From a virus (taxonomy: Duplodnaviria; Heunggongvirae; Uroviricota; Caudoviricetes), in IMG/VR virus record IMGVR_UViG_2585427746_000008: a DNA stretch of 22,019 nucleotides. One strand, written 5' to 3'. Shown here one piece after another: positions 1-5,267 of this stretch. The translations under genes and the position numbers were made by a program. Position 1 is the stretch's first letter. Each line of letters opens with the position of its first letter. Under the pieces are notes generated by a model. That model saw nothing but the letters and a program-made list of their open reading frames with translations, did not search any database and was not told the DNA's origin.

Positions 1-984
1 ATGACGGCGAAAACAGCACCGAAAGTCACGCTGTGGGAGTTCTTCCAGCAGTTAGGCAAAACCTTCATGTTACCCGTGGCATTATTGTCGTTCTGCGGCA
101 TTATGCTCGGCATTGGTAGTTCTCTTAGCAGCCATGATGTCATAACCCTGATCCCGGTCCTGGGCAACCCCGTGTTGCAGGCTATCTTTACCTGGATGAG
201 TAAGATTGGCTCGTTTGCTTTTAGTTTCCTGCCTGTCATGTTCTGTATCGCCATCCCGCTGGGCCTGGCACGCGAAAATAAAGGCGTAGCGGCATTCGCT
301 GGCTTCATCGGTTATGCGGTAATGAACCTCGCGGTAAACTTCTGGTTGACCAATAAAGGCATTCTGCCAACCACGGATGCCGCGGTTCTGAAAGCCAATA
401 ACATCCAGAGCATTCTTGGGATCCAGTCGATCGATACCGGGATCCTCGGTGCGGTGATCGCCGGTATTATCGTCTGGATGCTGCATGAGCGTTTCCATAA
501 TATCCGCCTGCCGGATGCGCTGGCATTCTTCGGCGGTACGCGCTTCGTACCAATTATCTCCTCGCTGGTGATGGGCCTTGTCGGCCTGGTGATTCCATTA
601 GTCTGGCCGATTTTCGCCATGGGTATTAGCGGCTTGGGCCATATGATAAACAGCGCGGGTGATTTCGGACCGATGCTGTTTGGTACCGGTGAACGTCTGC
701 TGTTGCCGTTTGGTCTGCATCACATTCTGGTGGCATTAATTCGCTTTACCGACGCAGGCGGCACGCAGGAAGTCTGCGGTCAAACCGTCAGCGGCGCACT
801 GACCATCTTCCAGGCGCAATTGAGTTGCCCGACCACTCACGGTTTTTCTGAAAGCGCCACGCGTTTCCTTTCGCAAGGTAAAATGCCTGCGTTTCTCGGC
901 GGTCTGTGTAACCAGGTAAATCATTTGATACCGACAAGGGTTTTAGTGAAAGGAGGTGAAATCACCTGTAAGATACTGAAATAA
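1..984 (+). CDS. malX: PTS sugar transporter EIIC domain (MalX-like), N-terminal ~302 codons only; frame runs into phage DNA after ~nt 906 and stops at 984 (disrupted gene)
   Basis: ORF starts at nt 1 with MTAKTAPKVTLWEFFQQLGKTFMLPVALLSFCGIMLGIGSS, a polytopic membrane protein typical of glucose/maltose-family EIIC. From memory this matches E. coli MalX. The last ~25 codons (CNQVNHLIPTRVLVKGGEITCKILK) are unrelated and coincide with the start of phage-end repeats. Confidence 0.6.
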   Translation: MTAKTAPKVTLWEFFQQLGKTFMLPVALLSFCGIMLGIGSSLSSHDVITLIPVLGNPVLQAIFTWMSKIGSFAFSFLPVMFCIAIPLGLARENKGVAAFAGFIGYAVMNLAVNFWLTNKGILPTTDAAVLKANNIQSILGIQSIDTGILGAVIAGIIVWMLHERFHNIRLPDALAFFGGTRFVPIISSLVMGLVGLVIPLVWPIFAMGISGLGHMINSAGDFGPMLFGTGERLLLPFGLHHILVALIRFTDAGGTQEVCGQTVSGALTIFQAQLSCPTTHGFSESATRFLSQGKMPAFLGGLCNQVNHLIPTRVLVKGGEITCKILK

Positions 985-1085
985 AACAGGTGATCGATGA
1001 TTCTGGAGGTTGTTTAGTTTTGATACTGATTAAATAAAATCCGGTATAAAATTAAGGTATCGGCAACAAATTTGATACTGCACAT
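905..1085 (+). repeat. attL-like terminal region with repeated putative transposase-binding sites
   Basis: Direct copies of TTTGATAC(C/T)G at 924-933, 1019-1028 and 1071-1080, a near copy at 971-978, and inverted imperfect copies (cggtataaa 1042-1050, ggtatcgg 1056-1063). Also a 9-bp perfect inverted repeat atcacctgt/acaggtgat at 961-969 and 985-993. Confidence 0.6.
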
Positions 1086-1946: not shown

Positions 1947-2192
1947 GTGAGTCTTATTGAAGATTGGTCTTCCGCCGATATAAAGGCAGCCTTAGAAAAA
2001 CGCGATACCAATTTGTCACGTTTATCAAGGGAAAATAATTTGCAGCCTAGGACTTTGGGTAATGCTTTGCGAGTTCCCTACCCTAAAGGTGAAAAGATAA
2101 TTGCTAGGGCTATAGGTGTAGAGCCACAGGTTATTTGGCCTACTAGATATGAACGACGTGCGCGGAGGAAATATGTGGGTTGCAATGACTGA
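1947..2192 (+). CDS. ner: Ner-like DNA-binding protein (Ner/Nlp family)
   Basis: 81-aa ORF with GTG start as first gene of the early operon. Resembles Mu Ner in size, position and motifs (LSRLSREN..., PKGEKIIA, PQVIWPTRY versus Mu PKGEQIIA, PEVIWPSRY). Confidence 0.8.
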   Translation: MSLIEDWSSADIKAALEKRDTNLSRLSRENNLQPRTLGNALRVPYPKGEKIIARAIGVEPQVIWPTRYERRARRKYVGCND

Positions 2193-4257
2193 ATTGATTT
2201 CATTCAGTGACCTACCTAGTTCTTTGGCAGGTCTGCACAAAAAAGCAAAGAGGGAAGCGTGGAAAACGCGGCTAAAACCAGGGGTAAAAGGGAAAGTTTT
2301 AGAGTGTGAAATAGGGGCTTTGCCTTTAACTGTTCAGCAGGCAGTACGCGAACGCTATGCCCTGCAACTGATGACGCAAAAAGCCGATGAATCACCGGCT
2401 CCGGTAGTGACAAAGGCCAGGCGCTCACCTGCCGTGGTTGATGCGGTGGAGGCATATCGCGGATCACCACAACTGATGCTCGAACGCCTCAATGCCCTGA
2501 CTGAAAACCAGCGCCAGGTGGCTGATGCACGAATCGCGATCGTCAGCGAAGTTCTGAAAGTCGCGCAACAACCTGGTTTCAGCTGTGCGAAGGCTATCCG
2601 GTTTATCGTTGACAACCTGGCACGTTCGCAACTGGACGAGCGCATTGTGGCAATGGTTGAGACGGCGAACGCCAAAAAGGGAAACAGCCGTGCGTTGAGT
2701 GAAATCACGCTGAAACGCTGGATTGCAGCCTTTAACAAGGCGCAGAACGCCGCTGAACGCCTGCTTTTGCTGGCACCTGGTAAGCGCCAGGAAATAAAAG
2801 CCGAAGATATTAACTGGCTGCCCGAATTTCTGGCGCAGTATCGCCAGTCAAACGGCCGACCAATGACCGAGGCTTACGAGGATTTTGTCGCTGAATGGCA
2901 GCACCGGCACGCTGATGAGCCTTATATGCTCGATATCATGCCGTCTTACGACACCATCCGCCGCGCAATGAAGAAACTGCCGGAAGTGGTGAAACAAAAA
3001 GGCCGGGTGACCGGCAGTGAATACCGCCAGCTTGAGGGATTCACGCGCCGCGACTGGTCCAGAATGCCGGTGAATTATGTCTGGATTGGTGACGGTCACG
3101 GCATGAAGCTGAAATGCAGGCACCCGGTTCACGGGCGGCCATTTGCACCGGAAGTGACCTTTGTTATCGACGGTGGCACGCGCTTTGTGGTGGGCTGGAG
3201 CCTTGACCTGGCTGAAAATGTTTTCGCCGTAGCCGGTGCCATACAGTACGGTATTCGTAATCACGGCAAACCGTTTCTGTATTACTCGGATAACGGTTCC
3301 GGGGAAACCGCCGACATCCTGGATAAGGAAGTTGTGGGGATCCTGCCGCGACTGGGGATTAATCACCCAACCGGGATTGCCGGTAACCCGCAGGGACGGG
3401 GCATTATCGAACGGCTTAACCGCACGTTACCGATGCGTATAGCCCGTAAATACCGCACCTATTTCGGGAAAGGTGCAGATCGCGAGACGTTACGCAAAAC
3501 CAACCGCGATTTACGCTCGGCATTTACCGCCCTGCAACAGGGCAAACGGCTGAACGCCCGGCAACAGTCAGCGATGCGTGATTTACCGTCCTGGTCTGAA
3601 CTGATTGATGCCATTCGTGATGGCGTTGAGTGGTACAACAACCGGCCGCACGATGAATTACCCATGAAGCCGAACGGGAAGCATTACAGCCCGGCGGAGT
3701 TCAGAAAAAAACGCCTGGCAGAAGAGGACACGGAAATTGAATGGCTGTCCGATGTTGAGCTGCGGGATATGTTCCGGCCAATGGTGGAACGCCCTGTAAG
3801 ACGCTGTGAAATACGCTGGCTGAATAATATTTACTACGCGCCCGAGCTGAGTGATGAGCATGGCCGCAAGGTGCTTATCAGCTATGACATTCATGATGCC
3901 GAACGAATTACCGTACGTCGCCCGGATGGCAGCGTGATTTGCGAGGCGGTATGGGACGGCAATAAACGCGAAGCCTTCCCGGTCAGCGCGGAATACTACA
4001 AACAGCAGCAACGCCTTAAAGGTATGCGTAAACGCGCAGAGGAAAAAATCCGTGATGCCGAGGATGAGGTTGTCAACGTGCTGGAGCACAAGCCGCAGGA
4101 GCCCTGGCTGGAAAACATATACCGCCCTGTGGGTAATACGGTGACCGTTCAGCAACCTGCCGTTGATGATGAGCCTGATGAAGAATACGAGCGTAATTTC
4201 CAGCGGGGATTGCAGTTGCTCGAAGCGAAATTAAAAGAAAATGACCCTCTGGCCTGA
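2173..4257 (+). CDS. DDE transposase (MuA-like)
   Basis: Roughly 695 aa. N-terminal winged-helix motif shared with the repressor. Catalytic-core-like motifs VWIGDGHG, YSDNGSGE and GRGIIERLNRTL are consistent with a D-D-E triad. GGAGG lies 4 nt upstream of ATG 2173; the gene overlaps the ner 3' end. Confidence 0.9.
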   Translation: MWVAMTELISFSDLPSSLAGLHKKAKREAWKTRLKPGVKGKVLECEIGALPLTVQQAVRERYALQLMTQKADESPAPVVTKARRSPAVVDAVEAYRGSPQLMLERLNALTENQRQVADARIAIVSEVLKVAQQPGFSCAKAIRFIVDNLARSQLDERIVAMVETANAKKGNSRALSEITLKRWIAAFNKAQNAAERLLLLAPGKRQEIKAEDINWLPEFLAQYRQSNGRPMTEAYEDFVAEWQHRHADEPYMLDIMPSYDTIRRAMKKLPEVVKQKGRVTGSEYRQLEGFTRRDWSRMPVNYVWIGDGHGMKLKCRHPVHGRPFAPEVTFVIDGGTRFVVGWSLDLAENVFAVAGAIQYGIRNHGKPFLYYSDNGSGETADILDKEVVGILPRLGINHPTGIAGNPQGRGIIERLNRTLPMRIARKYRTYFGKGADRETLRKTNRDLRSAFTALQQGKRLNARQQSAMRDLPSWSELIDAIRDGVEWYNNRPHDELPMKPNGKHYSPAEFRKKRLAEEDTEIEWLSDVELRDMFRPMVERPVRRCEIRWLNNIYYAPELSDEHGRKVLISYDIHDAERITVRRPDGSVICEAVWDGNKREAFPVSAEYYKQQQRLKGMRKRAEEKIRDAEDEVVNVLEHKPQEPWLENIYRPVGNTVTVQQPAVDDEPDEEYERNFQRGLQLLEAKLKENDPLA

Positions 4258-4334
4258 AATAAAAAAATAACCCGAGCGGCGACTCAGGTTATTTGATTAA
4301 ACTCGGAGAACTGTCTCAACGCGAGGTGAATAAT

Positions 4335-5267
4335 ATGACCGATATAAACGATGTAATCAAGACCATTGATGAACTTATTGATGGCGGCGTGCTGACGCAG
4401 TATGCCATCGCCAGAGAGGCGGGAATTTCCGACGGCACATTATCGGCTTTCCGCAAGGGGAAATATAAAGGCGATAACGCCGCTGTGGCTGCTTCCCTGC
4501 GCTCCTGGTATGAGAACTGGAATAAACAAAGCGCACTGCCGGAACCGCCGCAGTTTGTGGAAACTCAGACAGTCCAGGAGCTGCGCGCACTGTTTCAGGC
4601 GGTTCGCCTGATGGGCTGTATTAACGTTATTGTGGGCGTACCGGGTGTGGGTAAAACGGCCACTGCCCGTAATTACTGCCAGGAGCAACCAAACACCTGG
4701 ATGATCACCCTGTCACCCGCGCACTCCAGCGTCACGGAGTGTCTGCTGGAGCTGGCCGATGCGCTGGGGATTGATTACACCCGCGCGAACAAAGGGGCAT
4801 TATCCCGCGCCATCCGCCGTCGCCTGATGGGAACGCGTGGACTGGTGATTGTGGATGAGGCGGATCATCTTGGTATTGACGGTCTGGAGCAACTCCGGGC
4901 AATTCAGGACGCCACGGGGATCGGGATGGTGCTTATTGGTAACCCGCGCGGATTGTTTAAAGGTGGACGCCGCGCCTTTGATGATTTATCGCGCCTGTTC
5001 AGCCGTCTTGCCCGTACAAAACAACTTCGCAAGGCCAAAAAGGCGGATGTGCTGGCCATTGCCATGGCGTGGGGGATCAGTGGTGAGGCTGAGCTGGCCG
5101 TCATGCAGGCTATCGCTGAAAAGCCGGGAGCGTTACGCGTTCTGACACATACGCTTAACCAGGCGTGGCTCACCGCCAGCGGTGAAGGCGCGGCGCTGAC
5201 AGAAAAACATATTAATGCGGCCTTTAAAGAGGTTTATACCAACCCTGAATTACTCTCACAGGTGTGA
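4335..5267 (+). CDS. Transposition helper ATPase (MuB-like AAA+)
   Basis: Walker A motif GVPGVGKT and Walker B motif VIVDEADHL. Lies immediately downstream of the transposase. GAGGTGA RBS precedes ATG 4335; the ORF track start at 4293 lacks an RBS. Confidence 0.85.
   Translation: MTDINDVIKTIDELIDGGVLTQYAIAREAGISDGTLSAFRKGKYKGDNAAVAASLRSWYENWNKQSALPEPPQFVETQTVQELRALFQAVRLMGCINVIVGVPGVGKTATARNYCQEQPNTWMITLSPAHSSVTECLLELADALGIDYTRANKGALSRAIRRRLMGTRGLVIVDEADHLGIDGLEQLRAIQDATGIGMVLIGNPRGLFKGGRRAFDDLSRLFSRLARTKQLRKAKKADVLAIAMAWGISGEAELAVMQAIAEKPGALRVLTHTLNQAWLTASGEGAALTEKHINAAFKEVYTNPELLSQV

Follow-up and report, generated by a model that had tools for sequence, protein, structure and literature searches.

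In bacteriophage Mu, each end of the phage DNA carries three sites for the A protein that are unequal in spacing and orientation, and these are bound by the Iβγ region of the transposase while the Iα domain contacts the enhancer (PMC3562280). Mu insertion produces a 5-bp target duplication, and CA-3′ is conserved at both termini (PMC3562280), while the phage B3 gives 6-bp duplications (PMC8705779). A third described system is Sp18, a prophage of E. coli O157:H7 Sakai that is already annotated as ‘Mu-like phage’ in the genome record. Its DNA is packaged without circularisation (PMC2669165), and its sites are strain-specific (PMC2669165, PMC7430833). The repeats at the ends of Sp18 are not described in the literature we searched, outside which lie the older comparisons of Mu-like phages in subscription journals, and binding or transposition assays with this phage did not come to light there either.

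The window analysed here, a stretch of 22,019 nucleotides of Caudoviricetes DNA (IMG/VR record IMGVR_UViG_2585427746_000008), begins in host sequence. Positions 1–906 (+ strand) hold the 5′ part of malX (PTS maltose IICB), which is split by the prophage; the match to annotated malX is 100% and ends at 906, past which comparison with intact genes shows that uninterrupted malX reads ...GGTCTG/CCAGGTG, the slash marking the junction. From 907 the sequence is that of the phage (TGTAACCAGGTAAATCATTTGATACC... / TGTAACCAGG...), and 13 other complete E. coli genomes carry it, at loci that are not related to one another (qorA, ypdA, hyfF, yahO, torZ, sorM, cas7e and others), with matches that start at 907 or a few bases from it. 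Because malX identity stops here and the same start recurs at unrelated loci, we place the left terminus of a transposable prophage at 907 (5′-TGT... at 907–909, + strand, with CA-3′ on the transferred strand), on which the flank comparisons agree. The preliminary description of this DNA, which had located the repeats at the left end of a phage, was correct in this respect. The malX insertion of the window occurs in none of 5,426 complete E. coli genomes, and so represents a strain-specific transposition event. Our overall reading is that 907–1085 is very probably the attL of an Sp18-type Mu-like prophage in malX, and that the direct TTTGATAC(C/T)G cores within it are the A-bound sites L1–L3.

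Three direct copies of TTTGATAC(C/T)G lie 18–174 bp inside the terminus at 907, at exactly the positions first reported: TTTGATACCG at 924–933, and TTTGATACTG at both 1019–1028 and 1071–1080. We define site L1 as 913–938 (+), an invariant alignment block with its GATAC 21 nt from the terminus. Site L2, at 1008–1033 (+), has its GATAC at offset 116, and site L3, at 1059–1085 (+), has its GATAC at offset 168; both are supported by motif match, alignment and weight matrix. L3 differs in carrying a 5′ extension, ATCGGCAAC, at 1059–1067. This extension, ATCGGCAAAAC, is kept in the Sakai, Raoultella and Klebsiella copies, with the consensus ATCGGCAA(A/C)(A/C) across copies, which suggests that L3 together with its conserved extension may be a two-part site of ∼22 bp.

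The inverted imperfect copies that had been put forward as additional sites did not hold up, although their letters are present. The match at 1042–1051 (− strand), TTTTATACCG, is absent in Sakai Sp18 and in every relative compared, and is probably due to chance, while the inverted copy at 1056–1063 overlaps ATCGGCAAC, the conserved 5′ extension of L3. Two further candidates, a GATAC 66 nt from the left terminus and GCCGATACG 62 nt from the right one, were rejected as extra sites, being conserved neither in the relatives nor in the VL40 type of prophage described below. A partial direct copy, TAAGATACTG, is found at 969–978, unremarked in the preliminary description, within the L1–L2 spacer; reading the sequence around it shows an 8-bp inverted repeat, TCACCTGT/ACAGGTGA, spanning 963–993 (+). 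Sakai Sp18 has this inverted repeat unchanged, while the Klebsiella-type relatives lack it; it is a candidate for a pac or host-factor site and not for a conserved A site.

The pac of Mu lies close to its left end, and it could be supposed that the repeats are themselves part of a packaging signal, all the more as the spacer at ∼940–1000 is strongly conserved with Sakai. Headful packaging, however, starts from one end only, whereas the motif is symmetric at both ends of the prophage with matching offsets, and the 963–993 spacer with its inverted repeat is the better pac candidate; we therefore consider a packaging role for the repeats highly improbable.

The right end lies outside the window, which stops inside the head genes. 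[quoted passage not shown] Read inward from the right terminus, L001 gives TATAGCGCGGCGATTTTTTTGATACCG...CATTTGATACCG...TATTTGATACTA (full stretch, TATAGCGCGGCGATTTTTTTGATACCGATTTGCATTTCATTTGATACCGCTGAAAAACGCCGATACGCAACTTATTTGATACTAAATCGG), that is, three copies of the motif, inverted relative to those of the left end and all within 85 bp of the terminus, as had been proposed for the right end when the repeats were first noticed. The GATAC offsets of these copies, R1–R3, are 21, 43 and 78, in L001 and in Sakai alike.

The number and placement of the copies bear on whether the repeats might simply have clustered by chance in AT-rich non-coding DNA. In the window, 10 matches to the motif with at most one mismatch were found where 2.5 are expected, a number reached by none of 100 shuffles. 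Across both strands of the 39,284-bp prophage there are eight copies of TTTGATAC against an expected ∼0.9, six of them within 175 bp of the termini and all six pointing inward. The malX flank at 1–906 contains no TTGATAC on either strand, in keeping with the preliminary description, for which a similar density of the motif in flanking host DNA would have told against the array. The region is indeed AT-rich, and a further exact copy lies in a head gene at 21194, but three or more copies on one strand of a 175-bp stretch have a Poisson probability of ∼1e-9, the array is mirrored at the right end, and it is invariant across genera. Chance clustering is accordingly the least likely of all the explanations we considered. 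As to the internal copies, the exact TTTGATACCG of the major head protein gene occupies 21194–21203 (+), and a reverse-strand TTTGATAC lies within the A gene (L001 prophage coordinate 3400, −); both are probably chance occurrences.

A survey that took a single genome from each species gave seven relatives of A, and the left ends of seven copies were aligned (two from E. coli, one from Raoultella, one from K. grimontii, two from Klebsiella and one from Pluralibacter; A 53–93% identical). Mean column identity across this alignment is 57%, and outside the three motif blocks no run of at least four bases is invariant. In the copies from Raoultella, K. grimontii, Klebsiella (two) and Pluralibacter, whose A proteins are 53–57% identical to that of the window, the left end also starts TGT..., followed by ATTTGATA(C/T) with GATA at offset 21 and by two further copies with GATA at 92 and 134. 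A weight matrix trained on the non-E. coli left ends only ranked L1 first (score 25.5), L3 second and L2 fourth among the ∼44,000 positions of the window.

Inside the left end, the window carries the early genes of a Mu-like phage. A c-type repressor with a Mu DNA-binding domain (Pfam HTH_Tnp_Mu_1) is encoded at 1212–1718 (−), and RefSeq copies of this gene are annotated as DNA-binding protein. Between c and ner, at 1713–1858, TTGAWATWAAC is repeated at least seven times; this array, probably of operators, is overlapped by a promoter-like site at 1834–1862; a scan of 880–2200 for promoters and terminators gave a weak early-promoter candidate only. One isolated, perfect TTGAWATWAAC is found at 1137–1147 (−), in the gap that separates L3 from the 3′ end of c. 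There follow a Ner-like early regulator at 1947–2192 (+; Pfam HTH_35, E 7e-27), the 694-residue transposase A at 2173–4257 (+), with Mu-transpos_C and an N-terminal Mu DNA-binding domain, and a MuB-like AAA+ target-DNA activator at 4293–5267 (+; Pfam Phage-MuB_C and AAA_22).

The alignment of A with MuA is colinear, with 22% identity, and candidate counterparts of the catalytic DDE residues can be picked out in it. Residues 1–59 match the Iα domain of MuA (1TNS) and the DNA-binding domain of the Mu repressor (1G4D). For residues 60–300 the best structural matches are the MuA transpososome (4FCY) and the Iβ end-binding subdomain of MuA (2EZL), with TnsB next, and Foldseek likewise puts 4FCY first for the structural model of A, which is of moderate quality (mean pLDDT 72). 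A Pfam search of A did not detect the Iγ family. The modelled fold thus supports, within the limits of such a model, an A protein that carries a MuA-like end-binding domain diverged in sequence, and this divergence fits the different site consensus. The suggestion that the array implies a transposase of distinct end specificity is likewise borne out, as far as can be judged from a neighbouring A that is MuA-like and only 22% identical to MuA. Among deposited phages, the nearest by A are a Mu-like insert in an Stx1 phage (92%), Pseudomonas VW-6B (45%) and Klebsiella Kp4852-3 (40%).

Two natural experiments bear on which protein reads the motif, the first of which is provided by Sakai Sp18. Over ∼1000–2340 of the window, a region that runs from c through the operators and ner to residue ∼70 of A, the two prophages are nearly unalignable, while the flanks are 94–98% identical. 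The Sakai repressor is different, its operators are ACCAAAAATACC palindromes, and residues 1–70 of its A protein are 44% identical to those of the window. Everything from A residue ∼70 onward is 94–100% identical, the right ends are identical, and the first ∼95 bp of the left ends are 84–94% identical. The same three motif copies are found at the same offsets in both prophages; L2 and L3 lie inside the swapped module, yet they keep the motif and the exact offsets of Sakai Sp18. Read from the sequences, this is a heteroimmune module swap in the style of Mu and D108, with the ends untouched.

The swap bears directly on the possibility that the repeats are operator-type sites, bound by the repressor or by the repressor-like Iα domain of A. 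The operator TTGAWATWAAC resembles TTTGATAC, an operator-like copy lies near L3 (the one at 1137–1147), and the N-termini of the repressor and of A are 42% identical, all of which would fit such a role. Sakai Sp18, however, has another repressor, other operators and another A N-terminus, and still its end motif and offsets are unchanged and its right end is identical. The end motif therefore follows the rest of A (residues 71–694), and not the repressor, the Iα-like domain or the immunity module as a whole, and we regard operator-type sites as a very unlikely explanation.

The second natural experiment is a sister lineage, represented by VL40, RM9088 and Shigella SFBU1023, whose A proteins are 73% identical to that of the window. 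These prophages have TTCAAGATAA in place of TTTGATAC, in three copies at the left end and three inverted copies at the right end (L012, 1737–1900; L006, reverse strand, 41540–41705; L024, 1700–1825; L025). As the right end of RM9088 is truncated by IS elements, that of VL40 was taken instead. TTCAAGATAA differs from TTTGATAC by two extra base pairs between the ATT and GATA parts, while the spacings at the right end are identical in the VL40 type and Sp18 (R1–R2, 22 bp; R2–R3, 35 bp). Comparison of the VL40-type A protein with that of the window gives 28–52% identity over residues 1–150, 52% over residues 71–150 and 88–96% over the catalytic core (residues 251–430).

This switch argues against IHF, or another architectural protein of the host, as the reader of the repeats. 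In favour of such a reading, the L1–L2 spacer of Mu is bent by a host protein, and the ATCAA core of the IHF consensus occurs in the reverse complement of the motif, GTATCAAA, with TATCAA present in that of each copy. In L1–L3, however, the TTR at the 3′ side of that consensus is missing at the right spacing, and in the sister lineage all six copies have become TTCAAGATAA, without ATCAA, within the same host species; a host site would not change with the phage lineage. All six sites having changed together within one host species, a phage-encoded reader is favoured over a host factor, and the IHF-type reading is, in our estimation, less probable still than that of operator-type sites.

With A as the preferred reader, the two lineages also indicate how its specificity may be encoded. 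Residues 71–250 of the Klebsiella-type transposases are 41–62% identical to those of the window A, and these phages keep TTTGATAC; the corresponding residues of the VL40-type A are 52–66% identical, and there the motif has switched. The motif does not track the overall divergence of the end-binding region, a point against A as the reader, and from these alignments it would appear that specificity must rest on a few residues.

To the differences in the sites are added differences at the points of cleavage. All five Sp18-type insertions for which both flanks were available have a 4-bp target duplication, as has one VL40-type insertion. The duplicated sequences are TCTG in qorA, TAAA in sorM, CTGA in ypdA, TTCG in cas7e, GATA in the IS609 tnpA and TTCA for the VL40-type insertion; two of the Sp18-type duplications, those in qorA and sorM, were checked against the intact genes. 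The loci used were L001 (511–514 and 39799–39802), L002, L007–L011 and L022–L025, together with the window junction at 903–909, for which the predicted duplication in malX is TCTG (903–906). Of the five Sp18-type insertions, no more than one or two could be read as having 5 bp duplicated. A right end at ...CTATAT, as suggested by BLAST, gave inconsistent duplications (5 bp and 3 bp), and with more insertions this resolved to 4 bp and an end at ...CTATA. The copy in strain 2313 (NZ_AP027159.1; L021/L009) was set aside as a duplication pair, having hyaE on the left and torS on the right with no shared duplication, which suggests that the chromosome has been rearranged across a prophage copy or between copies.

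The right terminus of the Sp18 type is consequently TA-3′ (L001 39787–39798, ...CGCCGCGCTATA), and the left end is 5′-TG, with CA-3′ on the other strand. The VL40/RM9088 type (L025/L024) has 5′-TA at both ends (TATGACTAGG... and ...GCGCGCTTTA). In the literature searched, with the older subscription-journal comparisons of Mu-like phages again outside it, neither a 4-bp duplication nor a TA-3′ terminus is reported for a Mu-like phage. The Sp18 type may thus be a mechanistically distinct branch of Mu-like phages, with a 4-bp stagger, tolerance of TA-3′, and at least two transposase/end pairs in E. coli (TTTGATAC and TTCAAGATAA) that possibly do not cross-react, a proposal on which we find ourselves evenly divided. 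Should such a branch prove real and so far undescribed, nature would have provided a system in which to map the few residues that determine end specificity and stagger length in MuA-family transposases.

By analogy with Mu, transposition of this prophage can be pictured as follows. A (2173–4257) would bind L1–L3, probably through its Iβ/Iγ-like region (residues ∼70–250), and the inverted copies R1–R3 at the right end would be bound likewise. Six bound A subunits would then pair the two ends, bridged through their Iα-like N-termini to the operator array at 1713–1858, which we infer doubles as the transposition enhancer. Cleavage by A would fall at the terminal TG.../...TA, and the 3′ ends would be joined, with a 4-bp stagger, to target DNA selected by the MuB-like protein. 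The binding of A to the repeats, the domain assigned to reading the motif, the role of the enhancer and the order of assembly are all taken over from the Mu model in this scheme, and would apply here in so far as that analogy holds.

Arrays of transposase-binding sites are expected at the ends of Mu-like prophages, and with Sp18 already annotated as Mu-like the finding is in itself an ordinary one. Its value for annotation lies in the exact termini, the site consensus and the geometry, by which prophages common in Shiga-toxin-producing E. coli can be delimited, and the repeats offer a defined target for biochemistry. Of somewhat more interest are the 4-bp duplication, the non-CA terminus, the swap of the immunity module and the switch of all six sites. 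The last of these could be of use in working out how ends are recognised, or in the design of MuA-like transposition tools free of cross-reaction.

Set beside the known systems, the locus has the features of a Mu-type end: a host junction, occurrence at many loci, a motif array at both ends, genes for A and B together with c and ner, and sites that change with the transposase lineage. It lacks those of Mu proper (Muvirus), namely the CGAAA core, CA-3′ at both termini, a 5-bp duplication and close similarity to MuA. The original suggestion, of sites like L1–L3 of Mu but with a different consensus, is supported at the level of sequence by the inverted copies at the right end, the Mu-like offsets, the conservation across genera, the switch of six sites and the lack of CGAAA. 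In Mu (AF083977), CGAAA lies at offsets 22, 127 and 167 from the left end and 22 and 44 from the right, with an inverted site at ∼57; GATAC of the prophage lies at 21, 116 and 168 on the left and 21, 43 and 78 on the right. As in Mu, there are three sites per end, those on the left are direct, the terminal core lies 21–22 nt from the cleaved end, R1 and R2 are 22 bp apart, and a long L1–L2 interval is followed by a shorter L2–L3 interval. The neighbouring genes c, ner, A and B, and a repressor related to the N-terminus of A, are likewise shared. Unlike in Mu, where R3 is inverted at ∼57, R3 is here direct at offset 78; L1 and L2 are 95 bp apart and not 105 bp, the core is TTTGATAC(C/T) where that of Mu is ...CGAAA(A/R), and neither CGAAA nor TTTCG occurs in the left 200 bp of the prophage. 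The TA-3′ right terminus, the 4-bp duplication and the 22% identity of A to MuA set it apart further.

Mu and D108 are heteroimmune, differing in c, the operators and the N-terminus of A while sharing their ends, and the window and Sakai Sp18 form a pair of the same kind. The window-type left end is present in 13 of the 5,426 complete genomes, and the shared right end in 226 genomes (228 records). The prophages of the VL40, RM9088 and Shigella SFBU1023 type have the same architecture, with three sites per end and a 4-bp duplication, but with TTCAAGATAA replacing TTTGATAC. Further afield, the TnsB sites of Tn7 and CAST elements and the ends of B3/D3112-type Pseudomonas phages are likewise arrays of repeated sites at both ends, recognised by DDE transposases that share a superfamily with A; the model of A has TnsB among its structural neighbours, and D3112-type A proteins are ∼30% identical to A. 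The Tn7/CAST and B3/D3112-type ends probably differ from those of the window in consensus, site number and spacing.
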